Shown in pieces: positions 1,321 to 55,900 of a stretch of DNA of 64,000 bases. A program made the position numbers and the translations under genes. Each line of letters starts with the position of its first letter. Positions within the stretch are counted from its first letter, which is position 1. The stretch comes from Antedon mediterranea (lineage: Eukaryota; Animalia; Echinodermata), in contig NC_092679.1 of assembly GCF_964355755.1 (NCBI RefSeq), positions 21,869,432-21,933,431 of the forward strand, given 5' to 3'. The notes under the pieces are model-generated. The model saw nothing but the letters and a program-made list of their open reading frames with translations, had not been told where the DNA came from and did not search any database.

Positions 1321-2545
1321 TTAACTTTTATTAATCATTTTAACCAATGTACCAAAACATAAGAATGTTTGTTTAATATCGCCATTTTGTCAAAATATTT
1401 ATTTTTATAACAAAAAAGGTACATTTAAAAAAATTAAATATTGCTAATTAATGTCATTCTACAAGTAAAGCCTTCTTCTTTCAAAATATGACACATAAAT
1501 ATTTTTCATGCTACATTCTTATGCATTATCCATCTCAAATTGAAATTGTCCGCATAAAATATGCTGTCAAATAAATTGAATGACATCAGCTGTTAAGGTT
1601 TACCATGTTCCACCGAAAACTCTCTACTGTATATAAAAAATATTTATTTATGTAAAGCATAATTCTGACATTGTTATTTATTTCTGGAAAAAAAATTATG
1701 AGAGATCGTAACGTGTAAAGGAAGGCGTCAATGCTAGTTTTCATTTACAGCTTGAATGATTTTTCTTTTTTCTCACCTGCTATAACCTTAGGCGTACACT
1801 TAGAAAACTGTCAACAATTTCTATGATGACATTTTAGTAAATAAGCTTGCCGATTAGTGATAATAATCTGGCAGCTTTATTCTTAAATGTCAGTCTTGTT
1901 ATTTATGCCACCTTTGAAGTGAAGGCTCAAGTGTTTGTTATGATATGTTAGTTGATTAGGTTTCGTCCACAAGATCAATTTAAGTAAAATCAACAACGAT
2001 GCGGTTATCTGATTAAATAAAGATCGGATATGTCTTTGTGTAATTATGTTTAATGTTGATGATTAAATAATTCTATCATAGGTTTTGGACATTTTATTTG
2101 GTCATGTGGCTGGGACTTTTTTGTACAAATCAAATTGCCTGGGGAGGTTGAGTGGTGGAGATTTTTTTTTTCTAATGCCAAATAGTTTGCCCACCAGTGT
2201 CTGACCAAGAGGTTAAAGATGTATTATCCCCTAAAAACATGAAAAATGAATAGAAGATTAATAAAAAAAAAATAGAATAATTTTGACACGATCCCTTATG
2301 TACATATGTCAAATTGTCAATATTGTCAGCAAAAAAACATGGTAATATAACCGATACAAATTGAAATATATAATGCAAGATATAAAAATATATTTTATTC
2401 ATCATTATTTAATATGAACTATAATTTAATATTTTGATGTGAAATCTGTTTATTGATAATAATAATAATTTCATATTGTGAATATTGAAATAATAAATTA
2501 TTTGATGATTATACTAAAAAAAATATTTTTCTTGCCTTTTTACAG

Positions 2546-2587
2546 TCTCTGGAAAGCACACGACGTATGCTCACACTTGTGGAAGAG
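2546..2587 (+). CDS. SNAP25: SNAP-25 exon (vertebrate exon 3 equivalent) [14 protein letters not shown]
   Basis: ttttacag| 42 nt |gtatgt. Confidence 0.95.
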
Positions 2588-5500
2588 GTATGTTCTATCT
2601 GTCCTTTGATATTAGTTCTTGTCTTTTAGTCTTAACATTTTTTTTTAGTGCAGATTTACAGTAAAATCTCTATTATAAGATCACCACTGGTACTATATAT
2701 TCACATACCTGTATGGCATTTTATGCCCAGTATCATCGGCAAGTTCTATAATACAGTATCACATGTGTGTCACATTAATGCCTTTATTATGTTAAGCTTA
2801 TGATCTATGATACAGGCTTTACAAGTATAAGTAATATGTGACACTGTATCATAGAATTTGCTTTGATACTGTATAATATAGATACAGTACCGGGAATCTG
2901 CTAGAAGTTTTGCATCCCAAACAAATTCTACTATTTCTTTGTATTTTTGTTTATGATGTTTTTCAATGCAAATTAAATTAAAGATTCTTTTGTGGCTCTT
3001 TAAAAGAGTTTTTACTGTAAGCTATAAATAGATTTAGAAATAAAATGTTTGTGCTATAGATAAATCAATGGTTAATGTTTCATGTAGTCTTGTTAATGCC
3101 AATTGTTATTACAACATTAATTTCATTTTACTATTATACACTATAATTTATTATTATTAATAATAATTGGAACATTTCATTTTTTTTTATTTCATGATTA
3201 TTTACAACAAAAAAACTATTAAATATTATTATTTCACTGTAAAAATTTTTGATTTTTTTTTATATTTTTAAAAAATATATGGATAACTATCTTTTTTACT
3301 TCAAATGTTTTGAATTAACTACCTGACCTAAAACCAAGGTAAGATAGTGTGAAAGATACGAGAAATTGATTAAAACACTTTTTAAAATCTAGAGAGAAAA
3401 ATAAATAAATTATAAATGATATTAAAATTAACATAATAATAGTATTATTGTTCGATGTTTTATTAGTATAAATAACTTTGCAATAAACAAAAAGGTTCCA
3501 ATTAATAAAAAAAATTAATTAGAAATTTAATCAAAATAATTCAAAATGTTGAAGCATGGATTAAGAATATCATAAAACCAACAGAAAAAAAAAAGGTAAA
3601 TTGCTAATTTTGTTATTCCAATAAAATTGTTGCTCCTTTAAACTATCGGATGTAAAATTGTCTGTCGTGATTTAAGTCTTTCGTCACAGCATTTATGCAC
3701 GCTGAAAAATCTTAATTCCTTCCTAACAAGATGTATCCAGTACATATCAAACCTCCAATAATTTATCATATTTAAACACATGAGCACTTTATGTAAAGAT
3801 ACAAAGTTTGTGCAATTTTTTAAAATGTATTTATAACATCTAAGCATACCCAAAGTTTGTATGTTACATTCTAGTTTGAGCCTAGCTTACCCGGATAAAC
3901 CAACATACAGTAAGCCTATTATTCTCTAATGTTAAATTTAAAGAAAACAATCCTATTAATATTAATGGTTCAATCCACAAAATTCCAAAATTCTTGAATT
4001 TTAGATAATTACCCGGATAAACCAACATTTGCCTATTTTACTCTCTATATATATAAAGTTTAAATCCTTTAACAAACCCATCACAGTTATTGGTTCAATC
4101 TACAGAAATCCACAGAGGGAGAGCATCTCGTAAAATGAACATTCTTAAATTTTAACTCATTGAAAAAATAAACACTGTAATTTGCAGTCTGCAATTCAAA
4201 ACGAAATGCTCGACAGACCACCACATTAACTTTGGGAGTTCGCACACTTTGTTGTTGTATGCCTGGTTGAACTTCATTCCAAGGTGTCAAGAAAGATTTA
4301 CGTTAATTTTCACAAAGTCAAAATAGAATGAACGTATCGAAATTATGAATTTATAATGTCCACTTGTAATCAAAAACATTTGTGTCTTCGGTTTAAATAA
4401 TGTTAGTTATAAAATGGAAGTATATATTTCAACATTAAAATAAAATTTGAAATAAAACTGTGCTCTTTGATGCGTGAAGAAAACATTTGACGATTGTGAC
4501 TGACAGAAACTTATAAACTTATAATAAAATAAAATTCTAATATGGTCTATATTAAATATTTATTAATACAATAATTTATAACTATAATATTATTACAATT
4601 TTATTTCTAAATATATTTTATTAATTCATATTTAATGGACTGCAAAAAAGGATGTCTTAACTTAATGACATAATTAAGTATTAAAAATAAAATGCTAAAT
4701 TTTCGCTTAAAAATATTTAATTTAAATGATTTTTATATTTTATATGTTTGTTTTTATAAAATGTTATTATATAATGCTGTGTGGCTATACAATGTTATAA
4801 TGATGTGTGATGTTGTACAATGCTTAGAGCCAAGATGTTGGTATCAAGACACTTGTTATGCTGGATGAACAGGGAGGTAAGAAAGGGAGTCAGCTCAATA
4901 AATGAAAGCTGCCAATTGTCAATCAATGACTAAATCACTGCTTTGCCAACACTCATTGGTTGAAAGTTTTATCATGTGTACATCCACCCTCTGGTATGAA
5001 AATTGTACTGTCCATCTTTTGTGCACAGCATTTTAATACTGTATTCAGATGGAAACCGTCGTTTCTTGTGAATGAATATGTAATATATTCATATTTTTGC
5101 CTATTAACTTTTCTTCATTTTCATGTTACTGTCTTCTCTGTGTTTGTGTATATTTTATACGGACTGTTTATGTTGTTTTGTAAATGTTTTTTTTTATATC
5201 TTTTACTACTATCTATCATCCAACCTCATTCCTCTATTTTCTTACTCAAAAAACACATTTTTTACACATTTTCATCATACACTATTTTATTTTCTATTAA
5301 AAATCTAATCTTTTTTCCATTTCTAATGATCAATAAATTTTGTTTTTTTAATAATAAAATTCCAAGATTTTTTTCCTTGCTTTAAAAAATATACACCAAA
5401 CCAGTGTTTTCCATACCATACAGGTTCATTCATATTCATTAAAAGAAGGACTTTCACAGTCCTGTTTTTATTTAATTCATTTAGGATGATAAAGAAAAAG

Positions 5501-8500
5501 TATGTATATTTTTTAATAATATCCAATGGGGATTGGTCGATGGGAATGCTTCTTTACGAGCATGAAAACTGAAACGCAAACGAAAACGCATTTTTTAGCA
5601 TGATGCATTGTCTTGCATTCCCTCGCAAACCTTGACCTCTGACCTCCCATTCTGTCCATCCAACAGTATGTGCTTAATTAGATTGAGCAGAGTGAGGGTG
5701 GGGGAGTGGAGAAGGGTATCTGGATAGGAGGAAAAATTGTAACATATCTCTTATATTTTTGTTAAGAAAAGTTGTGGGTTTATGAATGTAATTTATTTAG
5801 TAGCCTCATTGGCTCTGTATTTAGTTTAGGAGTACAACATTGTCAGTGAGTTAAGAAATAGATAACAATGACATTGTGACACAGACACAGACACAGTATA
5901 TATACCCACAAATGTATTAAGACTATATAACCCTCTATGTTGAGGAATCAATTGATGTAGACACACCCATCCCTTCCTTTGTGGTAGATCAAATCCGACT
6001 AGTGAACAGTGTTCCTGGCAGCCCTCTCAAAAAATAAGCCAGTGCTTACAAATTGTCTCTAATTTCAACTATGACCCTTTGGGTAGTGCTTGGAGTGCGC
6101 GCTCCCACTTTTAAGACAGCAAACATTTAATTATGAACTAATTTTGGTATATATTTTAAATGTAGGAATATTATTTAATACTGTAATATGTTACAGTCCT
6201 GCAGTGCTTAGTGATCTATGTTGGGATCTACACTTACCTATTGTTCTGAAATTAAAAAGTCTAAATTAAAACCGCTTTACACTATACACATTATGATATA
6301 CCACAATCTTAATATTCCATGCCCAATTTAGCAAAATGCTTGAATGCTTGCATTTCTAGTGTAGTATTTTTGCATACCAAACAATCAATAAATTTTATTG
6401 GCTTGGTGTCAAGCAATTTCCTATAGCAATCTACCGAAGCATTATGGTTTTACAAGATGTGAAATCATTGTCAAAATTAACAATATTTCATTTCTTTTGT
6501 TAATTTTTAAGTTATTATAAAAATAGTATGAATTTTAATTGTTGTTTTATTTATAATATTTTATTAGGGATGTTGTTTATACAATAAACAATAAAAATTG
6601 ACTGTTTGAATTTTAATTATTAAATATTTTATTTATATATTTATTTTATTGAGAAAGTTATTGATTGTATTTTACTTAAGGTATAATTTAGCAAGAATAT
6701 AGTTAAGCACTGTAATGTATTTAACTGATAATATTTTATATAAATTATTATTATGTTTTGTAGAATGTGTTGTATTTGTTGATGTAGTCAGTTTTGAGTG
6801 GCATGTGCGTTTTATTCACAAGATTGTCAATAATATGTGATGTTTTTAAATTTACATATTTTAATATAAAATATTAATATTCGCTAGAATATCAATTATA
6901 ATAGTTTAAAATAATAAAATAAGAATAAAAATTACCATACTTTAATAATCAATGTTTGTCATTTTTCCGATGATAGACTTGAAATTGTAATCTTTTTTTA
7001 ATATTAAAAATTGTTCTATTTTTAAATTGATAGTGTTTAGTACTATTTTAACAATAATATGTTTTGTAAACAAGCCTAAAATATATTATTTGTACTCCTT
7101 TTTTACAAATATAATAATAATAATAACTACGGTATATATAATTTTTTTTTATAAATCCATCAATTTATTATGATTAATTTTGTATTACCATAAACAAAAC
7201 TCTTCCATATCGCTTGTGACATAACAACAAAAAATATAATCCTTTTCTAAGATACACTGTTAATAACATCTATCGCGCTATTTGTCGATATGCCACTATA
7301 CATTTACGGTTGAGTGAACAAGGAGTTCACATTTACATTGTACTGTAATCCATTTCAGTACATAATTATTCATATATGATTAAATTATATATGCATACCT
7401 AAAATTACATTTTTTTTATTTGGGTATCAATCCTGATATATAAATTAGAAGAAAAAAATAACTGCTGCTGTTTGAGTTGACCTTATTACAAACAAACACA
7501 AAACAACATATGCAAAAGATAAATTCAAAGGAAACTAATCAATTCCATATTCTGCTTTTTTTTTATTTTCTCGTATTATTTAAATAATTAATATGAATGG
7601 AATTATTATTAATTTATTTATACAGTACTTCCCTCCATACATGAGCATTATATTATATTTATATTAGGAAAACCTATTAAGAAATTTGTATCATATTACA
7701 AAAAGACCCACTATCAAATAGCTAAATTAATTAATAGTGTAAAAATAGTTTTTAGACATCACGATTGTTATTTGTTTTACGTGTTTTGTACAATTAGTTT
7801 TGTGTTTGATGTTTTTTTTTCGGCTATCAGTTTAAAATTAAATACGTCTTATTTTTAAGTAAATTTAGAAAATACATTATTTGGTTGTTTTAACACTTTG
7901 GATAAAAATTTTAATATGACAAAGAGAAAATAAAATATTAAAGTTTCATTATTAATATAATATTACCATTAACTTGAATTAGTATGTTTATAACGCTCGT
8001 TTTCTGGTTGTGTGCTTCAGAGAAAAATAATAGAGTTTATACTTAATTATACAAATGTTATTATTATTAAGGTATAACCACATATTTTGAAGTGAAAAAT
8101 GAAGAAGCTAGGCTGAAATGTGTGTGTAGAGAGAGATAGAGAGTATAGTTGCTAAAATACAGTACCCTTTTAAATTCTTCATTGTGTTAGGAAGGGGAAC
8201 TCACTCACCTCCTAACCCTTATTATTAGTACCATTAATTTGATTAAAGGCTAGATAAGATTTGTAATTAAGACTAAATACTAGGATTATTAAGGATTTAT
8301 TATTGGATTAAAATGCGATTTGCATAAAACTTACACCTGTGTTGATGTATGCAGATTTTCTTCCCTTTCATAATTATGCATTTTTTCATCTTCATTCCCG
8401 AAAATTAATTTTATTCATCCACGCATTTCCTTCATGTATTATAAGCATATCCTAGTTTCATTTGATTGTTTATTCTTCGTTTTATCCTTGCATGTATTAT

Positions 8501-11500
8501 TTCATGTTTTTGTTTAAAATCACTCCTTTGAAATGTTGGTTTTCAGTTTAAAATTATTAAAACATTTATGAATTACAATCCCCTTTGTTTGCTTATAAAA
8601 AACGTTGTTAATAGTCTGAATTAGACATTTTCTACTATGGGGGTGTGATTACGTTTGTTCTTTCAACCAATGAGTGTTTTATTTGCCATTATGAATGCAT
8701 GTTCATTACCACGTTTGACATTTTCTTTTCTCTTCGTTTCGTTTCACTTTTCATTGCATTTCATAGGCGAAGGATTCGGGTCTGAACACCCTTGTAATGT
8801 TGGATGAACAAGGAGGTGGTGAACCTATACAACCCTTTTATCAATGTCTTGGGGTCGTTCAGAATCATCAATGTTTTTAAAGACTGCAAAGGCTCTCTTT
8901 GCATCCCTATCTTAATGAAAAAAAGAAGAATATTATCCAGTGTTTTTATCAAACGAACAACTTATTTCCTTTGAATTCTTTGAAAATATTGATAATTTTT
9001 GGCGACGCCTTTTATAACAAACTAATTTACTGTAGTTCGTATTAAGTAGATAGTTTGTGCACCTTTTATTGAATTTGATGGAAATGTTGTTTAAAAAACC
9101 AACAACAAATAAAATATTGATTTGTGAATTTAAATAAAAAATTAAATGATGCTTGAGATTATAATAATTATCCAAAATTAATTTTCAAAACTTTAAGGGA
9201 CCATTTCAAAATGATTCTACTGCAGTTACTGCAGTAGCTACATTTTCAATATGGTATAACCTTTTTATGCAATTAATTAGCAATTACTTGTTGGGTTGTC
9301 ATATAATGACTGATACTGATTATAACCAGCTATAAATTCATATATGATATTGCGGTAAAAAATGTAGTTACTACTGCAGTAGAATGGCTTTGACGTGATC
9401 TCTAACCACATTTCCATGAAATAAATGACAACGCTAATTTGACGGTTCGTTACCGTGTGAACGTACAGTAACCAGCAATATTTATTCGTTATTTTTTCAT
9501 TAGATACTTTCAGATAATTTATCGCTGTATCTCTTCATTTTTTTTTTTCAATATCATGTGTCCTATAAATTAAAAAAAAAATGCTTTTATGTTTCTTTAT
9601 TCTTTTTGCAGTAAAATCCTTTTTGAAAAAATTCTACTTTAGCTTTGTAAAAACAATTTTTTTTAAACTCTTAGATGTATTACAGGCTTTGAATGTCATA
9701 CTATTGAAAATAAGCTAACTATTCATAACGCAAAAAAAGACATGTTTTCAATTAAAGCAAGTGATTTACTAAAATTGAGATTTTGAACTTTTTTTTATTC
9801 AATTTTCTTATAACAGATCTTCAAATATTTTTTGTATCATCCATTTAGTTTGCACAAAATCTTTAAATCGATGAGGCTTGTTCGTTGACATTTATCATTT
9901 TTTTTAAATTACTTCTGAATTATACAAAACTATAATTCCATGTGAACACTGAATGTGAAACCAGTCTGAACATCAAAACTTGGCAGAAATTTAAATGCTA
10001 ATTTGGAAAAAAAGTAGCTGGCTAACAGCAGTATAGGCAAACAGACATAGGATTATTGAATCACCTCGTTTTAAAGGATTCTTTTTGAATCATCCATTCT
10101 TTGAAAAATGAAATTAGTTTTTATGATCATATTAGGAACTTGAGTTTACCTCATTATCAAGAGGATACGCTTGATTGACTCTGAATTCAAAGAGAATCGC
10201 ACGAATCGAAGGCAATCATTTGGAGACTGGTTTTAACGCAAAATTGATTTTCAATCAAAAGGTTCATTAAAATGAAATTACATGCGTGCAAGCTGATAGC
10301 ATATGTACTAGTGTTATGGTTGTAACTTAGATAGTGTTATGATATGGTGTAGGGTTTACTCAAAATATTAGGATTATTGATGCAGGATGGGCAGAGTATA
10401 GTAGTGAAGCTTCTAGTATGTGAATTAGGATTGGGGTGGGGCACTGACCATTAAAGTGTAGTGTGAAGTATCAGAGAGTGGGAGTGAATTATCCGGTGTA
10501 GGAGTGAAATATCCGTCAGTGGGAGTGAAGTATCTATTAATGGTAGTGAACTATCTGAGAGTGAAGTATCTGAGTGTGGGAGTGAAAGTATCCATGAGTG
10601 GGAGTGAAAGTATCTGTGAGTGGGAGTGAAGTATCCGTGAGTGGGAGTGAAGTATCCATGAGTGGGAGTGAAGTATCCATGAGTGGGAGTGAAGTATCCA
10701 TGAGTGGGAGTGAAGTATACGTGAGTGGGAGAGTGAAGTATCCGTGAGTGGGAGTGAATTATCCATTAGTTGGAGTGAAATATTTGTGAGTAGGAGTGGA
10801 GTATCCATGAGTGGGAGTGGAGTATCCGTGAGTGGGAGTGAAGTATCCGTGAGTGGGAGTGAAGTATCTGTGAGTGGGAGTGAAGTATCCGTGAGTAGGA
10901 GTAAAGTATCCATAAGTGGGAGTGAAGTATATGAGACTGGGAGTGAATTATCTGGGAGTTGGAGTTAAGTATCCAAGAGTGGGAGGGATTTATCGGAGTA
11001 GGAGTGAAGGGTTTTGGAAGTGAGTGATTTATTGTGGAGTAGGAGTGAATTATCTGAGAGTGTGAGTGAAGTATCTGAGTGGGAGTGAAATATCTGTGAG
11101 TGGGAATAAATTATCTGTGAGTGGGAATAAAGTATCTGTGAGTGGGAGTGAATTATCTGAGAGTGCGAGTGATTTAATGGGAGGAGTGGGAGTAAATTAT
11201 ATGGATGTAAAGTACCCAGAAGTTAGAGTAATTTATTTCGGAGTTAATTATTCATGGTGGGGGTGAGTTATCAGTCAGTGGGAGTGAGTTATCAGTCAGT
11301 GGAGTAAAGTATCTGTTAGTGTTAAAATATCCAAGAGTGAGGACCAGAAAGAGTAGGGAGAATGAAGTATCCAGGAGTGTGGCATTGACCAGCAAATAGT
11401 GGTAGGAGAAGGATGAGGGAGTGCAAAGTTGACTAAAAAAAAAGTAGTGGGAGTAAAGAATCTAGGGGTGGAAAGTGAAGTGTTTAGGAGTGGAGAGTGA

Positions 11501-24600: not shown

Positions 24601-27371
24601 ATTCTAATTCATCACTACATATGAAACGTAAATCTTAGGGCTAAGATAAGTTTTTTGTATTTTTAGAACATTTTATCCAAATAAGGGATGATTTATTGTA
24701 GGATTATAGCATTAAGTGTGTTTAAAGTGCACAATTTATTCAGTACTTTTTCAATAAGATTATTTTTTGTCTTTGTTTAAAAAAAAGTGTTTTTATTTAA
24801 ATTTGTGCAATATCGTTTAAATGTTCATAAATTACTTTAGATTCTTTGTCATATAGAATAGTATTGTATCGTATTTTTCTGTTGAAATCACCTTTGAATC
24901 AATTTATTTAGTGTAATAGATCAAAACAAAATTAGTTGACTTACTACATAGTTTGTTATTGCTAGGCCTAATCATGAATGATAATATGTAGCTGTTTGTT
25001 TTTTTTATTCTAGCTATACTCAGTAAAAATGTCAATTAAGTTCAACCACCTCTAATGATAGAGCAGGGAGCTGTTATTAGCCCGGATAGAGTTAGCAGTC
25101 AGCTTTCCCAATTAATGCTCTGCCTACACTATCCAACTTTATGTGACAACAAAATGTGATGTGCCCATATATGGACATGATGACATCATATCGCTACCAT
25201 ATTTGAGCACACACTGGTTTGATAGTGTAGACAAAGGTTAAGACGAATGTTTGAATTTCCATTTTGTATTGGGAGAGTTGACTAAATATTATAATAAAGT
25301 TTAGTTAGATAAGGTTTAGATTACTGTCTTATTAAACACATTAGCATAGACATCCATAGTACTATTCCATCCCATGTTTATCATTCCTTGTTCATCATAT
25401 TGTCACCGCAGGATTTTCATTAAGGCACTAAACCATATTCTAGTCAGTATCTAATAGAGAGAGCTTTTGAATCGATTTTCATTCACCTAGTAGCTGTAGT
25501 ACCTAAGCCTCGATCAGAGACATCACATATACTATATTATCACAGCAGTTGTCCTACACTTAGCCCTATACTTCCCTACCTATTTTCTCAGTCCGTAGAT
25601 CACCATTTCCTCCCCCTACCATCACCATACTAGATACCTAATCCTTCCAGTTTTTTCCCCCCAGTAGGTCGAAATGCCTAAAGAACAAGTTGTAGCCTAT
25701 TCATAATTTGTCGTGTTGAGATCCATTTTAGATGTATATAGATTAAATATGTACAGTACACATTAAGTTGAATTTCAGTATTCAGTATCCAAATAGTTCT
25801 ACTTAAATTGATTTATTGTATTATAATTAAGGTACAATTTTGTTTCCATTTATTTTATGTTGATATATATAAATTTCTTATGCATTACATTTTTTTGTAA
25901 TGTCCAATTAGGTAATTTTTTTTCATATACGTCCGTGTGTGCAATAGATTGTACAAAATAATAACACCTGTATTTGTAATAGAGAAATGGCACCACCAAT
26001 AATGTTCAAATCAATTTTAATCCTATTAATTATTTATTTTTAATATAATAAATGTTTCAGCTTACTTACAATATTTCATGTATTTATATTCAACTAGTAT
26101 ATATATCACAAATTTTACTTTTTTTTTTTTTCATGCTTTTTCCTACACATATGATTTCAATATTTTTCAAGCACATACAAATGTTAATGTTTCTTAATTC
26201 CATATACTAACATTCAGCCAGTTTTAAAAAAATTAGGCACAATTTGGATGCCAAATTGGCAGCCATCAAGCCTCCAGGAAAATGTTTGTTTTGGTATTCA
26301 GGAAAGTAAAAAATCTCTCACATCTCCCGACAATCACCGTCAGTTGTTTTATGATATTTCAAGTGATATCCCGTCTCCTGCTAAAGGTGGAATTTCTCCC
26401 GATTGATGGTATTGGATATACAGTACCTTGTATACTACAATGGTATATAGGGATAAATAAAATTGATAGCAAGGGTGGAAGAAAAGGTGGGATGGAGTGC
26501 GATGTGTAGGATGTTGGAGAAGGGAGAGAGAAGAGACTTATTTACTACACTACACCTGAATACCATAAACAGTCATTTTCATGCATGCCATCCTGTTGCT
26601 TTATTTTCCTTTTATTTGCTTGAATATCTGTGCACGTACTGAACAGTATAAACTTTTTTGTTTTCATATTTTGTGAATATTAACATTTTTCTTATACAAT
26701 TTTATTTTCAGCTTTTTAAACAACTTTATTTGACATTTATCAATTTTTCACAATAGCATACAAAAAAAACTCTTTACTTAACAACAAAGATGAGAAAATG
26801 CACTAAAAATGTATACATTTTGTTTATAAAGTAGAACCTCTATTAAGGGGACACCTTCTTCAAACAAATTTCCTAATATGGCTGTACCATGAATAGGTGT
26901 TGGTCATAATGCTAAAACATATATGTCCCCTTGTTTGTTTTATGAGAAAGTGGCCCTTTAATAAGATGTCTCCTTAATAGGATGTCCAATTAATAGGGTG
27001 TCCCCTTAATAGGGGGTGTCCCATTAATAGGGTGTCCCATGAATAGGGGTTTCCCCTTAAATATGGGTTTCCCATAAATAGGCTGTCACTTTAATAGGGC
27101 GTCTCCTGAACCCTAATATGGGGCCCCATTATTAATAGGATGTCCCCTTAATAGGATGTCCCCTTAATAGGGTGTCCCCTTAATAGGGGTTTCTCTTAAT
27201 AGTGGTGTCCCCAGAGGAGAGTTCTACTAATCTATACTTTTGTACAATGTTAATAGGTATTTCTTTCAATATCTATCTAATTTCAATGTCTCCTATTCAC
27301 AGGCCGAGTCCAATAATGAACGTATACAAGTAGCAGACAAAAGGGCCAAGGATATATTAAGAAAACAGTAA
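2546..27371 (+). CDS. SNAP25: Synaptosomal-associated protein 25 (Qbc-SNARE), multi-exon, 5'-partial; alternative exons 4a/4b and 8a/8b
   Basis: GT-AG exons 2546-2587, 4828-4876 (or 8767-8815), 19603-19720, 20547-20681, 21430-21574, 23733-23795 (or 27303-27371) join in frame: [78 protein letters not shown]. Exon sizes 42/49/118/145 match vertebrate SNAP25 as recalled. Confidence 0.97.
4828..4876 (+). CDS. SNAP25: SNAP-25 alternative exon 4a [16 protein letters not shown](E)
   Basis: cttag| 49 nt |gtaaga; contains the zero-layer Gln of SNARE motif 1. Confidence 0.93.
4948..5006 (+). promoter_or_regulatory. 5' arm of predicted long-range intronic RNA duplex (pairs with 8625-8678)
   Basis: 4948-4966 aacactcattggttgaaag is the exact reverse complement of 8660-8678; 4976-5006 pairs with 8625-8654 using G-U pairs and bulges. 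Confidence 0.8.
8625..8678 (+). promoter_or_regulatory. 3' arm of predicted long-range intronic RNA duplex (pairs with 4948-5006)
   Basis: ctttcaaccaatgagtgtt at 8660-8678, ending 88 nt before exon 4b. Confidence 0.8.
8767..8815 (+). CDS. SNAP25: SNAP-25 alternative exon 4b [16 protein letters not shown](E)
   Basis: Polypyrimidine tract + tcatag| 49 nt |gtggtg; same length and phase as 4a, synonymous divergence with protein conservation. Confidence 0.88.
9196..9403. mobile_element. Degenerate MITE
   Basis: Imperfect inverted ends attctactgcag..ctacattt / aaatgtag..ctgcagtagaat; related fragment near 44055-44100. Confidence 0.55.
10475..11340. repeat. 21-bp minisatellite GAGTGGGAGTGAAGTATCCRT, degenerate edges
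   Basis: Tandem units visible; explains the 7-aa periodic ORFs 10551-10913 and 10744-10968. Confidence 0.9.
11465..13775. repeat. 22-bp minisatellite GAGTGGAGAGTGAAGTATCTAG, about 105 units
   Basis: Homogeneous purine-rich tandem array in the SNAP-25 intron. Confidence 0.97.
14985..15692. repeat. (ATC)n trinucleotide microsatellite
   Basis: About 700 bp of catcatcat with cac/caa/tat variants. Confidence 0.97.
17736..17880 (+). mobile_element. tRNA-derived SINE (degenerate)
   Basis: A-box-like gtagtggagctggtgg and B-box ggttcaatcc; homologous to the minus-strand element at 56040-56568. Confidence 0.6.
19603..19720 (+). CDS. SNAP25: SNAP-25 exon 5 with palmitoylation Cys cluster CCGICTCPW
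   Basis: tttcag| 118 nt |gtaata; [38 protein letters not shown]. Confidence 0.95.
20547..20681 (+). CDS. SNAP25: SNAP-25 exon 6 (linker, QPMRV motif)
   Basis: ttttag| 135 nt |gtatct; [45 protein letters not shown]. Confidence 0.93.
20961..21030 (+). mobile_element. tRNA-like SINE head remnant
   Basis: ggcacaatagcttagcggtt ... ggttcaaatcc ... tgcca: A/B boxes but no convincing anticodon arm. Confidence 0.5.
21187..21342. mobile_element. MITE family A
   Basis: agctctgtctaca ... gtgtagacagagct. Confidence 0.8.
21430..21574 (+). CDS. SNAP25: SNAP-25 exon 7 (SNARE motif 2)
   Basis: ttttag| 145 nt |gtgagg; [48 protein letters not shown]. Confidence 0.96.
21808..21971. mobile_element. MITE family A (further partial copy 22376-22464)
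   Basis: agctctatctacac ... tgtagacagagat. Confidence 0.8.
23217..23339. mobile_element. MITE family A, one end truncated
   Basis: Internal family sequence and right TIR gtgtagacagagct. Confidence 0.75.
23733..23795 (+). CDS. SNAP25: SNAP-25 alternative terminal exon 8a [20 protein letters not shown]
   Basis: TACTAAC at 23665-23671, pyrimidine tract, caacag acceptor, phase 0; aligns to vertebrate ADSNKTRIDEANQRATKML. Confidence 0.9.
   Translation, partial: AQSNVGRISVANERAAKLLK
25116..25239. mobile_element. MITE family A
   Basis: gctctgcctacactatcc ... tttgatagtgtagaca. Confidence 0.7.
26829..27228. mobile_element. Tc1/mariner-like MITE family C with internal ~17-bp tandem expansion
   Basis: agtagaacctct ... 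gagttctact ends; internal aatagggtgtcccctt repeats; relatives at 13846-13929, 41495-41940, 49903-50043. Confidence 0.65.
27303..27371 (+). CDS. SNAP25: SNAP-25 alternative terminal exon 8b [22 protein letters not shown]
   Basis: ttcacag acceptor, phase 0; same heptad layer residues as 8a. Confidence 0.92.
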   Translation, partial: AESNNERIQVADKRAKDILRKQ

Positions 27372-42314: not shown

Positions 42315-42872
42315 AGACTACTGTACGGGGCACGATTAAAACAATGACATTTTTGTTGCTTAATTTTCAATTAATGGTATATTGTCCTCCAATTGTGGCC
42401 CACAATTATATTTAGGATACACTTTTTGATTTAAAGTGGGATTTCTATACCATAATAATACTACTATACTGTATATTATGACCGAGCAGTAATAGTTCCA
42501 TGCTCGAGTATATCCAACCCCTATTTAGGCTAAATTTGGACATAAGACTTTGTAAATTCCATTCTTAAGGCAATCCGAGTATAATCCCATTTTTGTAAAA
42601 TGTCATACCCGGGCCTACTTGGACTACACTCAGGCATATATGGTGTATATTTCGCACTAAATTATTCAATTTTGTTATATTTTATGTACAAATTTAAAAT
42701 TTAGGTTTTAATAGAAAAATAAATTACATAACTTTATTTACCCATGGTTAAGTACAGTATTTAATTAATTAGCAAGCCAAAATGATATAAACAGTTAGTT
42801 TAAGTTTTTTACCCTTATTTAAGCATGGTCTATCTTATTTCTTCAGCACCTTGATGCCTTTCTCCAAATTTA

Positions 42873-43029
42873 AGCTCTGTCTACACTATCAAACTAGTTT
42901 GACAACAAAATTGTGATGTGCCCAAATATAGTATTGATATACCTAAATATGGTATTGATATGACGTCATCATGTCCATAATATGGGCACAATTTGTTGTC
43001 ACATAAAGTTTGGTAGTATAGACAGAGCT
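42873..43029. mobile_element. MITE family A, complete, TTA target duplication (PIF/Harbinger-Tourist type)
   Basis: tta|agctctgtctacac ... gtatagacagagct|tta. Confidence 0.85.
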
Positions 43030-44695
43030 TTACAACATGCCTACTGTGTGTATACAAAACAACAAAGAATATTGATCATGCTATATGGTACTTCACACTT
43101 GTTTTGGTGGTATTCAAGTTGTAATCACACTTCAGTAATGGTAACTGAATAAGTTATTGTTGATGATGACCATTTGTTGAGGCATTACGCTTAGGAAGTA
43201 AATGGTTTGAAATGTTTTTAAAAGTATTCAGTTTAAATAATACTCTGTTATATACTCATATTGAGGTGTTATTTTTATGGAAAAATATTTTTACTGGTTA
43301 TAATAAAATCTGCCAAATTGTTCAGGAAGTATATAATCTCTATGTTTTAAGAATATATAATACAATTTTTAAAGGATGAATAGAATATTTGAATGACAAA
43401 CTCTTAGAGAACGAATAGAATCCAGGCCTTTGAAAGAAGTTATAAGCTAGGCTTTAAAGCATTAAGTATGGTATGCCTGCTCATGTACGTTGGTTTATTT
43501 ATACTTCCAGTTTGTTGCATATTGTTTTCTCATATTCACATCATTTATTTATGATTTAATTCAAATTCAAATTAGCTTAAGTATCCGTATCCGTCTTTTT
43601 ATGTTAATTGTGTTCAATATGGATGCACCACTTCTTGTGTGTGCCACCGATGTAAAGGTGCAATTTCCAAATAAATTGATTGATTGATTGAGATCTAATA
43701 CTTTATGCTCAAATGGCTTTCTATGAATATTATATATTATTTATATTATGAGTATTTTATAGAATAGTACTTTATTGTTAGGATATAATAATGTTATTAT
43801 AATAAAGGTATTATCTATAATCTCTACACCAGGATGTGTATGGCAACCGAATAATGGTTGACCATCTTTTTTACAAGTTTATGTTATGAAAAAATATACA
43901 TAAAACAGTGGTTGTACCTTTGATGTTTTTACCTGTGCATACTGTTATTCACTCATAAGCCAGAATTGGCTGATCTTGTGTTAATCAATTCTGATAATTA
44001 AATGAATAAAATCAAATAAAATAAATTATAATTGTATGTTATTGCAGTAATCAAATGTAGTTACTGCAGTAACTGACAGTAGAATCATTTTGACAAGATT
44101 CATATTGTTCAGCTACAATATAATGCTGTTTCAGGTGTTGGGTGCATGTTGTAATCTAATTGTCTGTATATAAATTACAAATATTAACTTTTATAGAGAT
44201 TTTTATAGATTAATTTGGTGACTATATATCGACTATATCGAATGTAATTGTTATAAATTATTAATTAATTTTGATAAATAAATTATATGTGTATTTTGGT
44301 GACTTTAATCAGATTATTCATTTTTATAAATTAAAGAACTGGTTTGACAAATGAAGTAGCTTCAGTTTTCACTTAAGCACACTTAACTATCTTGACTTAA
44401 GCAAAAAGATAGATTACACCAGCTTTGGTTTTCAGTACTAGGCACTGGATTAAATTCTACCTTTAGAGCGTAGTAGAACCACTAAATACATCATAGCCAG
44501 GATCGACAGCTATGAACGCTCGCTGGCTAAAACCAGGGCCCAGAGTATGAGCAGTCTAATGTTGGAGGGCCTCTTAGGAGTGCTAAGCCTGGGTCCTTTG
44601 CTTCCTGCGTTCACCACTGACTATGTAGTGGAACCATAGCCAGTAGCGACAGATGTGATTGCTCACTGGCTAAACCCAGGGGCCCCAGATCTTAA

Positions 44696-44875
44696 AGCGT
44701 GGTTCCCACTAGCGACGCAACACAAGGACGTAACGAAACGCAAGTGAATTGACCAATCACAAGCGATGGCTTATTCGCTTGTGATTGCTAACTGTCTACA
44801 ACTTCGCTTGTCATTTGGTTAAAATGCTTGCGTTGCGTTTACGTCCTTGCGTTACGTTCTAGTGGGAACCAAGCT
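44696..44875. mobile_element. MITE family B, TAA target duplication, inside a degenerate GC-rich repeat (about 44490-45030)
   Basis: taa|agcgtggttcccactag ... ctagtgggaaccaagct|taa. Confidence 0.85.
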
Positions 44876-45536
44876 TAAGGGGTCCCGGAGTATGAGCAGT
44901 CCAATGCAACTACAGTGTTGGAGGCCTCCAAGGAGTGCTAAACCAGGGGCACCAGAGCTTGAGCAATCCAATGCAAATACCCAGCATTGGAGTGCTAAGC
45001 CAGGGGCCTTTGCTTCCAGCATTACGCCACTCACCATACCTAAGTATGGCTTATTTTCCAATAGGCATTTGTGTGTTGGATCATTTCTGATCCAGCCCTG
45101 AAATGCTTCTCAACTTGAATCAACACTAATAAATGCTGGTATGTATTATGAAATATTGAATATTGAAATAATCTGAAAATACAGCAACAAGCCATACAAT
45201 TTAATTTGAATAAAGAGTTGTGTACATGTACCAAGGCAGTAAGATTGCATGTACTAAAAAATGCTGGTACTACTGGATAATGCATATGAATAATATATAC
45301 AGTATTGGAATATTATGAAAATAAAGCAAGTCAACTACAATACTATAACTATAATTATGTAATGTAGTACAGGCCTACCAAAAGATATGTCCCTTTTCTG
45401 TCCTTTTAAGTCAAATAATGATTTTTTTTTTGTTTTTTTTTATGGAAGGGAATAACTTTATTAAAACTGAAATGGTCTATTCAACAAATTTTATTATTCT
45501 TTATTTTTTATGTGTTTAGGGAACAATACATCTGTA

Positions 45537-45687
45537 AATCTCTGTCTACACTACCAAACTAGTTTTACAAAAAAAAAGTGTGGCCAAATATGGTAGTGAT
45601 ATGGCCATATATGGTAGTGATATTACATCATGTCCATGGGCACATCACATTTTTATGTCACAAATAATTGATAGTGTAGACAGAGCT
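45537..45687. mobile_element. MITE family A
   Basis: ctctgtctacac ... gtgtagacagagct. Confidence 0.8.
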
Positions 45688-46646
45688 TAATAAAAAGATA
45701 CAATTAATCACACATTTGTATACACAATATATTATTGAATGCAAATGCTCTTATTGAGATCAGTGCGATTGTGCAATACTGTAACCTTAATATTAGATAT
45801 GCAATTTATTCTGCATTAAATTATGTATTCAGAATTTAAAATATTATTTGATATATGCAATCATATTAATAAGCTGCATTTCATACAGCTTATTTCTTAA
45901 TCAGACTAATTGTTTAGGTATCCAAGCAACCAAACAAAATCTTTTTCAACTCTTTTCCTACACAACCAGGTGCATCAATAGGAAAGAATCAATCAATAGC
46001 CAGGAATAATCAGTCACGGTTGAATAGACACAAGGAGATTACTTTATAACTGTAAGGTAAATTGTCAACATTTTTTCAATCAATAATAAGAGCTGATAAA
46101 GAATAAGCAGTGTTCTCTCAATATAGTCTGGCAAATTAAGTGGAATACCGAATTATTGATACTACTGTATTATTTATATACTACAAGATATCAGTAATCC
46201 ACTAAATACAAAGATGTCAAATCATATTGTACTTCGTCTCTCCAAAAATATAGCCTTTGATTTCTCTTTGTCTATGTTTATAATGGCTAAGCCTAACCTA
46301 CCACTACTAGAAAAGTGTTTATTTTATGCATAATTTTCTTACGCCAGTTTTAATACCAGTTGGAGTAAATTTAAACCGGCAAATCTGGCTGGCAAAACCT
46401 GCTTCGCGAGAAGAAGAAACCTTGGGTTAGGTTGGTTTCATTATAGTCTAAGCGCTAGATGGAAATTGGGCTTAATAATAATTATAAACATTTTGGCACA
46501 TATGGTGTGTCATACACTTTAGCTGGAATGGCATGTACACATTAAATACGCCAACTGGTGTTGCTTGTAAAGGAATACCAACAAAAAAGACAACAGCTTG
46601 CATACAGTTTAAATGTGGCGTTAACTAGAGCATATAGATAGTATCA

Positions 46647-46777
46647 AGCTATGTCTACACAATCAAACTAGTTTGACAAAAAAAAGTGTGAAGTTCCCAA
46701 ATATGGTAGTGATATGACATCATCATGTCCATATTATGGGCATATCATATACAGTTTTTAAGAGTGTAGACAGAGCT
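46647..46777. mobile_element. MITE family A
   Basis: agctatgtctacac ... gtgtagacagagct. Confidence 0.8.
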
Positions 46778-47076
46778 TAAGATTTGAGTTCCGCACTAAA
46801 TCAGTTACGTAGGTTTTGATGTCGATTAGGCTAAATTTGTTGAAAAGAACATTCTGCCACACACATAGCATGGCATAACTGTAATGCTTGAGCTTGAATA
46901 AATTCCTGTTGGCAGCACTACTAGATAAAACAATTCAAGTCTGTAAAATAATATTGTAATTCTAATTGCAGATGTTGGGAATGTGACTTTGGATTTCCAC
47001 ATTAACAACATACAACCAGCATTGGCAGCACTGGAGCAAAAGTTTAGGGCAACCTCTTTCAATGCGACAGGTATTA

Positions 47077-47228
47077 AGCTGTATCTACAATATCAAACTT
47101 TGTGACAAAAAAAATGTAATGTGCCCATATATGGACATGATGTTGTCATATTACTACCATATTTGGCCATACTGTATCACTACCATATTGGGCACTTATT
47201 TGTCTATTTTGAAAGTGTAGACAGAGCT
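47077..47228. mobile_element. MITE family A (opposite internal orientation to the 46647 copy)
   Basis: agctgtatctaca ... gtgtagacagagct. Confidence 0.8.
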
Positions 47229-48751
47229 TAACTCTTATTTATAAGTACAGCACATACAACAAAATTAAGTTCACATCCATGGTCTTTTAATTAAAAAAAA
47301 AAGCTCTACATAGCCAACAATACAAATAAAACAAAAAGATCATTCTGAGAAATATGACTAACCCATCAATGGTTCCGATTATAGTGTGCATTTACATTGA
47401 TTAATGCTAATATTGTATTGAACCATATAATTACCCTTTCACACAGAGATGACACACTGGACTAAGTCATGTTTACACTCGACAATTCTGAGTTACTAAA
47501 CAACCACAAAGCAACAAATCACATGTATGCATACTAACTGTAATTAATTATCAAACAAACCCCACTTAAGTTGCATTCGCACTAAGAATAAATGCAAAAT
47601 GATCAGTTTTTCTAATTTAAAACAAAGCAATATAAAGGGATAGTACAGTAACATGATCAATTAATATATACAATGTACTCCTTCATCCAAAATACTTTTA
47701 CGATACAAAATGGTTTAAAATTTACAAATTGTCTAAGAACGGTTGCCGATAATCTTCATAACATTATCTTGTCAAATAAAAAACAGTTTTTTAATTGGGA
47801 TAATATACATTTATTGGTAGTTTATACAATTTCTATAACCCGGAGTATTTCATTATCTAGAACATGCATATTTGTTCTATTGAAGAATCAACTATTATAT
47901 AACAGTAGATAAATTTATGAAACCTTTATAAAGGCGTATTGTAAACAACCATCCAACGGGTATTAAGTATAGTTGCAACTACAAAGAAACTAGGCGTTGA
48001 ATTGGTTCCAATAAAGAGAGATTCCAAAAAGATTTGTCTAGGATAGTTAATGGGTACAGTAAGCGTAAGGCCTGAATATATACATTATAGTGGCTGGAAG
48101 TCAAGTAATGACGGGAGACTAAACTTCAGTATTTTGCCTTGTTTAATTATACTTAAGACCAAATAATTAATTTTTGATTGGTTTAATTAACATAATTATG
48201 ATATTTAGATATCCACTTTTTTTTTAAACATGAAATGTGCAAAAAACAAACAAAATACTATCTCTTTTTGAGACAGTGTGTTTTTTTTTATTATGTAGGC
48301 CTATATTTGTTACATATCTGAGTATTAATAATTATAACCAAGTTTGAAAAATGTACACTTAAAATTAATAAACAATTGTTTTCAGTATGTCCCTACAATA
48401 CAGCTAAAAACGTGACAAGCATTGATTTGACAAATCTTTTTCATCGGTTGCTCATTTATCATTTCAGATTACTACTTTGAAATGAGTTTCTCGCACGATC
48501 TACAAAACAAAAAAGCAAGATTTACGTCAATGTAAAATCAGGTACAGAATCTGTTTTTCAGTTTTAAAAATCTGTTCTTAACTTGCATTACAAATCACAA
48601 TGTGAAACGGTCTTGACGAGATTGTGAAACACAATGTGAAATGGTCTCAACTTGTATTGTGAAACACAATGTGAAAATAGTCTTAGCAAGATTGTGAATC
48701 ACAGTGTGAAACAAGATTATACATTTACATTACATTACATTTACTTACATT

Positions 48752-52943: not shown

Positions 52944-55900
52944 ATGAGAGGGAAGGGAAAACGACAGAGAAATAAAGGAGGAATGCGTGGTCGTGGCAGA
53001 GGTAGAGGTTCGAAAAAACGACGTGTTGACATCGGTCAACAGCAACGACCAGAAAACCACAACTTCACGGCTGGGAGTGCACTCCAGGCGACGAATTCAC
53101 ACGGGGCAACTCGGTAAGTCGTGGTGGTCAGTTCGACCCAAATGTAAATAATGACATGTATTGACGGATGCTAGTCAAGTCGCCCCATACAAAGTCGCCC
53201 CTTACACAGTCGCCCCAAAACAAAGTCGCCCCATCGCAAAGTCGCCCCATCGCAAAGTCGCCCCATCGCAAAGTCGCCCCAACGCAAAGTCGCCCCATCA
53301 CAAAGTCGCCCTATCGCAAAGTCGCCCTATCGCAAAGTCGACCTAAAACGTTAAAAAATAGTTTACAAGTGCGTAAAATGTTGCAATGATAGTCTCAGGT
53401 CACACGATCGGCACGCACCCCCATCAGAGAGGAAGCCCCCGACTAATCACTCTGCGGTCGCACTCTAACGTGCTAGCTTACAAGAGGGAAACCCCCGTAA
53501 TTACTCCGCCGTTACAACGCACCATCTGAAGATGCGGAAACCCCGCCGGAGTTTTACGATGATATCAGTCGCGTTCGAAATCGGTTGCGTTTAATTTTGG
53601 TCGCGATAAAATGATGTTATACGATCTAGATTATTTTTACTTTTGGTTGATGAATATTTATTATTATTATTAAGCCTATATTAATAATTTGTAAACATAG
53701 TTTAAGATTATAGTATTATCCAGCATAATGTCATTTAACAATACATAATTATTTAAATGTGAAATATTTTATAGGAAACGTAGGCTACGTCTGTGTCTTT
53801 TATTTTATATGCAACAAATTACGTAAAACAATTTATTTATAAACATTCAGTTTACTATTATATACATAACAATGAACATTGATTGGAAAGGCAATGAACA
53901 TTGATTGGAAAGGCAATCCCATCATTATATCCATTATAAAATTGCATCATATCACCACTATATGTCGTAAATGATGACGTGCGTGTGTGTATTCGTCGTA
54001 CGTCCGTCGTGTACGTATTATTCCGTGCCTCTTCACTGTCTTGTTTAATTTAAAATTAAATAAACACCCGATATTTATTAGGCATGATAATTAGAATGTT
54101 CTATAACCAAAAGGGTTGAAAAGAATTTCTTCAGTAAAATTATCATTGTGCTGTTGAATAAAAGGCGACTCGCCATCTGAAACATTCTCTGAAACCAATC
54201 GGAGCTGCGCCTTCGGGTATCTGTTTCCTCACAGCTGCTACGTCTTTCTGCTGACCGTCGGGGATTTCCCTTTTTAAAAAACACGCACACGATACTGTAC
54301 GATGGTTTTTCCATGGTCAAAATGTAGCGTTTTAATTTTACTAAAATACCTGCATGTAAAACAATCATATCGGCGATGAAATCCTTTTTTTTTTTTATTT
54401 CTTCATTTTGAAAAGTCATTATAAAATTAAGACACATAACTTGTCAATAAATGCAAAATGATCAATAAGTAGCCTATAACACTCATTGTCTCACAACACT
54501 GTTATTTTTTTAACTACTGTAAATCTATACGAAGGCCTACTACACATTTATACATTTATTATATTATCCTAAAAAATTAGCTGGTATCCACGCGTAGGTT
54601 GAAGAAAGATTCGTAATTTTGGCTCTGGTAACTAATTTTAAAATCATATTAAATTAACATTTTCGAAACTATAAATCAGGGATAATCTTTTTAGGGACTA
54701 TTTTTTTAATGATTTTTAAAAAGCACATCACTCCATTAAAACCTGTAAAATAAAAATTAAAACACAAATTATGTATACAATAGGATAAACATTATAATGT
54801 ATACGACATTTAGCGCGACCAAAGTAACAACGCAATCGATATCAAACGCACCCAAAACTCATCTCTTCAGAGAAGCATAATCGCACGCTACTACTTGCAC
54901 AGATCTTGGAAAACACAGCGCTTTGAAACCTTTGTCTCTTGCGCTTTATAAATGTTATTTATTATTATTATTATTAAAACCGTGGGCGACTTTGCAATGG
55001 GGCGACTTTGCGTTGGGGCGACTTTGCGATGGGGCGACTTTGCGATGGGGCGACTTTGTAATGGGGCGACTTTGCGATGGGGCGACTGTGCCGGGGCGAC
55101 TTTGTTTTGGGGCGACTTGGTATGGGGCGACTTTGCGATGGGGCGACTTGACTGAATCCCGTATTGACATGATAATCTTTGGGTTTTATGATATAAAGTG
55201 TTATCAAGTACATGCTAACATAATATTAAATGTTATTGTGATATTTGATAAATTTAATTGTACGTTTTATACATTTTTTAATATAAAAAATAAAAAACTG
55301 TTCAACTACTGACTGATTCTGTTTTTCCTGAAACTCCTGAAGACCCTCCTCTGTGATACTGATAAGTGATGTTGTTGTTGTTGACACGTTGTGATGAATG
55401 ACAGGGAAAAAATATATAAAAGTTAAATTTAAACTAAAGAAAGCATCTTACCTTAACATACTTGACTGTCAAGTTGACATCATTTCAAAACCCTCCCAGG
55501 CGATACTGGTATTATTTGTAATTTACCAAAAAATGATTAATTCATTTTATTGTTTACAGCAATTTGAAGAGCAGAAAAGTTCCACCTTCATTGCTACAGC
55601 AAACAGAAGTAAGAATAATGACATTTATAAATTGTAATAATATAATAATCAAAGTTACAAATTACAAATATATTTTTTAATTTATTTATGTTTGTCATGT
55701 TTTAGTTTGGTTGTGATAAATCAATTAGACAACCTAATTTTTTCTTAGCTAACTTTTAATGTTATGTATTAAAATAATTGTTTTGTATACAATTTTCATT
55801 TTTATCATTCATACTGTATGGATATTAATTTTGGATATAACTCATTTTACCTTTTCTAGGAAAATTGGAGTTCAGAAAGTGAGGATGAAAATCCACTTTA

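Follow-up and report, generated by a model that had tools for sequence, protein, structure and literature searches.

The stretch of DNA analysed here is 64,000 nt long (the window; positions are counted from its first letter) and, judged by its matches, it is the crinoid SNAP-25 gene of Antedon mediterranea or of a very close form. This assignment follows from three matches: the RefSeq isoforms map onto the window without mismatch (tblastn; exon starts at 2546, 4828, 8767, 19603, 20547, 21430, 23733 and 27303), the window's exon 7 is 100% identical to the RefSeq SNAP-25-like isoform X1 of Antedon mediterranea and 94% identical to that of Anneissia japonica, and the full-length window protein matches the Pfam SNAP-25 family. 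The sole difference between the window and a sequencing run of the same sample is a 1-nt gap at 5035. Our interest is in a long-range RNA helix predicted in the intron that separates two twin exons of this gene, 4a and 4b. The exons and the arms of the helix are as follows.

2546..2587, + strand: SNAP-25 exon 3, 42 nt, constitutive (tblastn with RefSeq isoforms; splice sites; joined to 4a in an RNA contig)
4828..4876, + strand: exon 4a, 49 nt, SQDVG type, with a poor acceptor pyrimidine tract and a donor matching 7/9 of the consensus (RefSeq isoforms; RNA contig joining exons 3, 4a and 5)
4948..4966, + strand: 5' arm, perfect 19-bp core (exact complementarity, window uniqueness)
4973..5010, + strand: 5' arm, inner bulged helix (duplex energy, fold)
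8622..8657, + strand: 3' arm, inner bulged helix (duplex energy, fold)
8660..8678, + strand: 3' arm, perfect 19-bp core (exact complementarity, window uniqueness)
8767..8815, + strand: exon 4b, 49 nt, AKDSG type, with the gene's best pyrimidine tract and its weakest donor, 4/9 (RefSeq isoforms X2 and X5)
19603..19720, + strand: SNAP-25 exon 5, 118 nt, cysteine cluster (tblastn with RefSeq isoforms; splice sites)

Exons 4a and 4b are a mutually exclusive tandem pair, as the original prediction had assumed; the basis is gene models and one contig, by which the rarity of double inclusion is not measurable. The two exons are identical at 34 of 49 nt and differ in 5 of 16 residues. Both forms of exon 4 (a QD.GIKT type and a K[DE].G type) were present in all nine echinoderm and hemichordate groups examined, and exactly one exon-4 motif was found in each of 69 echinoderm and hemichordate (ambulacrarian) proteins. 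One contig of run X5, which we guess to be RNA, covers 4a and has exon 3 and exon 5 as its loose ends; it therefore joins exons 3-4a-5 and skips 4b. If 4a and 4b are both included, 4b is read in a shifted frame and stops at its codon 13; if both are skipped, exon 5 has a stop at codon 17. Because these early stops precede further junctions, both products are expected to be targets of nonsense-mediated decay, and decay alone could therefore enforce exclusivity.

Positions 4948-4966 are the exact reverse complement of 8660-8678 over 19 bp, with no further perfect pair on either side, and this core match is unique within the window at up to 3 mismatches. Both arms lie inside the 3.9-kb intron between 4a and 4b, 71 nt past the 4a donor and 88 nt ahead of 4b, and the core-to-core interval is 3693 nt. 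The duplex reaches inward to 5010/8622, giving 51 pairs counted from 4948 (48 of them up to 5006), of which 4 are G-U. The exact core, its inward continuation and the distances to the exons had all been put forward in the original prediction, and all are borne out. The inner helix has 31 columns, with 26 Watson-Crick pairs, 4 G-U pairs, 1 U-U and no A-C mismatch, and it carries many single-base bulges. A helix with so many bulges and no A-C mismatch appears unlike a simple aged DNA duplicate, and since it can be aligned only with several gaps, an RNA helix that tolerates bulges would be a better fit than a DNA repeat of recent origin. In the minimum-energy fold of 4760-8850 (4.1 kb) both helices are present up to 4996/8633, with 4998-5010 pairing elsewhere in that fold, and the core has a pair probability of 0.98 in two-strand folds. 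Over 24 kb neither arm has a second strong long-range partner; the next-best is 17 kcal/mol weaker, and the next-best partners of the 5' arm sit in a tandem repeat.

The composite helix exceeds what is expected by chance. Of 1000 dinucleotide shuffles of the intron, 2 gave a perfect inverted repeat of at least 19 bp, and the inner 45-nt helix (-27.9 kcal/mol) was reached by none of 1000 shuffles. The observed duplex energy of -62.6 kcal/mol was reached by none of 1500 random real pairs of 100-nt segments lying 1-6 kb apart, the best of which gave -50.2 kcal/mol; satellites were excluded from this null. The ends of the 4a-4b intron also form the strongest duplex among the nine intron forms of the gene (-73.1 kcal/mol versus -15.0 to -50.5). 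The outer flanks of the helix are ordinary (831 of 1000 shuffles were as good), and the same applies to the next inner block (62/1000).

The surroundings of the splice sites contain further features that bear on function. Those before exon 4b are the following.

8682..8701, + strand: 5' strand of the hairpin predicted to cover the 4b acceptor, with UGCAUG at 8696-8701 (folding)
8715..8719, + strand: candidate branch point (match to yUnAy), predicted, directly ahead of the pyrimidine tract (motif scan)
8752..8771, + strand: 4b acceptor, forming the 3' strand of the predicted hairpin (folding)

Splice-site strengths are opposed in the two exons: 4a has a poor acceptor (its pyrimidine run is the shortest among 8 acceptors) and a good donor, while 4b has a good acceptor (the highest pyrimidine fraction of the 8) and a poor donor (the poorest of 6). 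The RefSeq models make no use of an alternative 4b donor that lies 3 nt downstream. The UGCAUG, which is the RBFOX motif and is recorded here by its presence alone, lies 17 nt outside the 3' arm and before 4b; GCAUG within 100 nt upstream was found for 1 of 8 acceptors, that of 4b, and the chance of UGCAUG there is about 0.014, calculated post hoc. The motif occurs a second time (UGCAUG/GCAUG) inside the loop at 8489. Pairing of 8682-8701 with 8752-8771 over the 4b AG has an energy of -16.2 kcal/mol, which was reached by 1 of 1000 shuffles for a window picked post hoc, and this hairpin has a predicted probability of 0.78-0.90 across 8 windows and stays when the 3' arm is occupied.

We tentatively propose, with a probability of roughly 0.45, that the two arms pair in the pre-mRNA as a bridge of the FGFR2 type that sets the splicing ratio toward exon 4a, with decay clearing the errors. 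Pairing of the arms in the SNAP-25 pre-mRNA would reduce the 3.9-kb intron to some 160 unpaired nt, and the UGCAUG would come to lie about 90 nt below the 4a donor and still just above the putative 4b branch region. As a general rule, RBFOX proteins activate an exon when bound downstream of it and repress when bound upstream. One bound RBFOX protein could promote 4a and hold back 4b, and in its absence the strong 4b acceptor would win; the predicted hairpin strand 8682-8701 would fold over that acceptor, and transcripts containing both exons or lacking both would be cleared by nonsense-mediated decay. The direction of the effect, toward 4a, is the least certain step, as it rests on the RBFOX position rule. 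That the stem has any regulatory role is something that we infer, as the original prediction did.

In FGFR2 both elements of the stem, IAS2 and ISAR, are found in the intervening intron. This stem activates IIIb and represses IIIc, and Fox proteins read a GCAUG downstream of ISAR (PMC2471395). The Antedon gene shares with it a (here predicted) two-element intronic stem on an exclusive pair and a GCAUG downstream of the 3' element (PMC2471395), and double inclusion is frame-shifting in both (10.1101/2025.08.16.670673); here too both arms are in the intervening intron, and UGCAUG lies between the 3' arm and the second exon. Unlike FGFR2, the Antedon loop is 3.6 kb, the helix has about 50 pairs, the second exon is without GCAUG, and a hairpin is predicted at the 4b acceptor. 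The likeness of the putative stem is one of layout, and no sequence homology is claimed. A preprint extends the FGFR stem to sea urchins (10.1101/2025.08.16.670673), but an urchin FGFR gene is described with only one homologous exon (PMC5703972), and we therefore do not rely on the urchin stem. The SCN9A stem of ISRE1 and ISRE2 with its TGCATG forms a bridge that tunes the ratio while exclusivity is kept (10.1101/2025.08.16.670673), and RBFOX bridges of this kind have been reviewed (PMC7404189). As in this bridge (cf. also ENAH exon 11a), Antedon has a long-range (predicted) stem, a TGCATG right past the 3' arm and duplicated exons; in contrast to Antedon, the SCN stem lies downstream of the second exon, spans < 0.6 kb, is conserved in vertebrates and has been tested experimentally.

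The original prediction had likened the stem to Dscam1 and 14-3-3zeta, and this comparison does not hold. In Dscam1, 14-3-3zeta and srp a docking site outside the cluster is contacted by competing selectors and exons are looped out (PMC6071210; PMC4691838). Antedon resembles these genes in having tandem duplicated exclusive exons and long-range complementarity. The docking and selector geometry was rejected because both Antedon arms are in one intron; no exon is in the loop, and the 24-kb search gave no second strong partner for an arm. The matching layout is that of FGFR2 IAS2 and ISAR. Steric exclusion was also considered and rejected. With the stem closed, the donor is about 110 nt from the predicted branch point, which exceeds the limit of 50 nt given for this mechanism (PMC5740500). 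Since no exon is looped out and about 110 nt is above 50 nt, the stem cannot by itself forbid double inclusion and would set the ratio.

Several observations weigh against the ratio-setting bridge. Pairing inside the intron is by itself expected to favour the joining of 4a to 4b. The UGCAUG at 8696 is predicted to be paired (probability of being unpaired 0.05-0.53), which would hinder RBFOX; the region of the 4b hairpin is overall as stable as shuffles (z -0.14), and the 4b acceptor has two unrelated partner sites within 24 kb that pair with it equally well or better. The putative stem is known here from this one Antedon gene; two runs of a second organism, with small shares, had no coverage of exon 4a or the 5' arm and so carry no weight either way, and among 18 metagenome loci scanned, 8 had one exon-4-like motif and none had two copies, and there was no orthologous intron among them. 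The window contains 39 perfect inverted pairs of at least 16 bp within 6 kb. One satellite accounts for all but 22, and of these 22, 5 are two-copy only in the window. With inverted repeats so abundant in this genome, the 19-mer alone is unexceptional. The sense strand has an advantage of 9.4 kcal/mol, but this strand asymmetry was matched in 77 of 616 retained simulations of DNA inverted repeats of similar strength that had decayed neutrally; the several G-U pairs reported in the original prediction are real, but they do not show the RNA-level selection that it read from them. Finally, a 9-bp direct repeat resembling a target-site duplication (TSD) abuts both arms, and insertion of an element into a short intron would itself place both of its ends near splice sites. 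The feature is real, well placed and provided with a specific known analogue, its function is putative, and one credible transposon signature stands against the bridge.

The two copies of the direct repeat are as follows.

4939..4947, + strand: left copy of the 9-bp direct repeat (7/9), TSD-like (direct-repeat test)
8679..8687, + strand: right copy of the 9-bp direct repeat (direct-repeat test)

They suggest a different history, in which a non-autonomous DNA transposon inserted long ago in an intron of about 150 nt and now makes up the 3.7-kb interval, with the arms as its terminal repeats and without a role for them in splicing. We consider this unlikely. The 7/9 repeat abuts both arms exactly, and of the 22 listed inverted pairs this one scores best for a TSD; at random positions such a match has P of about 0.006 at 9 bp and about 0.04 (3.8%) over TSD lengths of 4-12. 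By the 9-bp length of its TSD, such an element would be Mutator-like. When the interval and one copy of the 9-mer are removed a 150-nt intron is left, and an insertion would account for the closeness of both arms to the splice sites; the abundance of inverted-repeat elements in the genome and the non-significant G-U bias point the same way. On the other side, the 5' arm appears not to be a high-copy repeat. No other contig aligned with it at 80% or more in 4 runs (filtered contigs, hence not proof of absence), no further copies were found in 265 million letters of same-sample contigs (depth near 18.7, one contig), and the window has no other copies of the arms. Of the two marks of a transposon end that the original prediction named against itself, high copy number and a TSD, it overlooked the TSD-like repeat that flanks the arms. 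No Pfam family, and therefore no remnant of a transposase, was found in 11 intron frames taken from the longer stop-to-stop frames, although non-autonomous elements need none. Next to a TSD that has decayed and an inner repeat with gaps, a perfect 19/19 core would also look out of place unless pairing had been selected, and the right 9-mer has an alternative use in the 4b hairpin, whose strand 8682-8701 includes most of it together with the UGCAUG. The left 9-mer (4939-4947) with its flank can also pair with the 4b acceptor (-10.8 kcal/mol), so that each of the two 9-mers is complementary to this acceptor site. A search of 2400-10400 against Rfam gave 2 matches, both far under the gathering scores; one of these, at 9197-9258, is a weak match to mir-17 (E 0.013, 25.9 bits against a gathering score of 49.5) within a local inverted repeat and is probably due to chance.

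The two histories could be combined. A transposon may have inserted in the roughly 150-nt intron between ancient twin exons and then been domesticated at the RNA level, with selection keeping the terminal repeats paired and so restoring a short intron, and with a TSD copy taken into a hairpin that controls access to the 4b acceptor jointly with an RBFOX site. Taken jointly, these steps make a scenario that we regard as very improbable.

A competing switch like that of ATE1 would place the regulation at the 4a acceptor. In ATE1 the R2R5 pairing sets the isoform ratio, and R1R3 and R3R4 hide 3' splice sites (PMC7797038). Applied to Antedon, the 5' arm would hide the 4a acceptor until displaced by the 3' arm, transcribed 3.7 kb later; 4a would be released only as 4b emerges, and the speed of elongation would decide the choice. 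The site concerned is

4822..4841, + strand: 4a acceptor and exon start, pairable with the 5' arm (-18.8 kcal/mol), pairing not robust (folding)

The pairing of the core with the 4a acceptor was equalled in 3 of 500 shuffles and is the fourth-best site in 24 kb, the 4a hairpin is in the local minimum-energy and centroid folds and is lost when the 3' arm is offered, and ATE1 itself (PMC7797038) provides the precedent. However, this pairing is one of 24 tests, the hairpin has probabilities of 0.33, 0.09, 0.63, 0.11 and 0.00 in five windows, the accessibility of the 4a acceptor does not rise when the long helix forms, and the region of the acceptor folds no better than shuffles (z 0.68). The ATE1 competitors R1 and R4 are similar sequences before each exon, whereas Antedon is without such paralogous flanks; R2R5 loops out exon 7b, whereas the Antedon stem loops out none. 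Competing pairs of the ATE1 type were rejected, as the 5' core pairs with the 4a acceptor (3/500) and not with the 4b acceptor (476/500). The one-sided version that remains seems to us distinctly unlikely.

It is also conceivable that the helix forms and has no effect on exon choice, as would be the case for a local inverted duplication of chance or neutral origin or for a helix that aids intron removal in general, with exclusivity coming from the mismatched splice-site strengths, protein factors and decay. The stops described above, inside 4b with both exons and in exon 5 with neither, fit this explanation, as do four other two-copy perfect inverted repeats of at least 17 bp in the 64 kb; among human exclusive exons, clusters that shift the frame are frequent (377 clusters, 60%; PMC5740500). 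It would require that an independent second helix in register (0/1000), a distance of at most 90 nt to both splice sites and an adjacent UGCAUG are all coincidental, and we hold it to be rather improbable.

If the ratio-setting bridge is correct, an echinoderm would have an unusually strong and testable RNA bridge of the FGFR2 type. The exons that it would act on, which lie in the first SNARE helix of SNAP-25, form a pair common to echinoderms and hemichordates and distinct from the vertebrate 5a/5b pair. Vertebrate SNAP-25a and SNAP-25b use tandem, exclusive exons 5a and 5b in the region of the first SNARE helix (PMC2581893); in contrast, Antedon doubles the 49-nt exon 4 and has a single 118-nt exon 5. 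Structure-guided exclusive splicing, documented mostly in insects and vertebrates, would reach a third animal branch, and the locus would be a clean case on whether splicing stems derive from transposon ends. Were the domesticated transposon the right account, the splicing switch of a core synaptic protein would come from transposon ends and their scar, on a pair that is perhaps early bilaterian. Because the mechanism class is already known, the gain would be a new case and a possible origin story. The literature, searched mainly at the level of titles and abstracts, gave no description of an invertebrate or echinoderm SNAP-25 exon-4 pair, none of an RNA structure in SNAP-25, and nothing on transposon ends in exclusive splicing.

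The age of the exon pair can be considered from its distribution. Seven amphioxus proteins showed one exon-4 form, and the three tunicate proteins are too few for judgement. Alternative forms of exon 4 were also found in two fly clusters (Condylostylus and Culex) of 8 further clusters, as STEVG and SKEAG types with a third form in Condylostylus, and a row in the supplement of PMC5740500 places Drosophila Snap25 among exclusive-exon genes that are non-orthologous to the human pair, with the exon unnamed. From its presence in nine ambulacrarian groups and two fly clusters, the duplication may be older than Ambulacraria and perhaps bilaterian, or may have arisen twice or recurrently. Remnants of the duplication were not found in the 200-nt flanks of 4a and 4b (19/300 and 248/300 controls scored as well), and an origin from a duplicated hairpin arm, as discussed in PMC6071210, is therefore unsupported. 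Within the loop, a 17-nt segment at 7309-7325 is similar to the 3' end of exon 4 (88% to 4b) and could be a decayed third copy or a chance match. In Strongylocentrotus an 'ovarian' SNAP-25 record has a 4b-type exon and the other GenBank record a 4a type, which hints at tissue-specific use.

Elsewhere in the gene, the last exon of SNAP-25 has two alternatives, at 23733-23792 and 27303-27368; three C-terminal forms occur in other echinoderms and in Ptychodera, and the third was not found in the window. Tandem repeats that are long and strand-skewed lie in the intron after exon 4b at approximately 10450-15700, along with an array of trinucleotide type. One family of dispersed inverted repeats, of which the window contains up to about 20 copies, is represented at 789-988, 21184-23314, 25107-25211 and 42870-47231; it is likely a miniature transposon. 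At 53176-55119 a 16-nt GC-rich unit is present in two inverted arrays about 1.7 kb apart, an arrangement typical of a foldback-like element.

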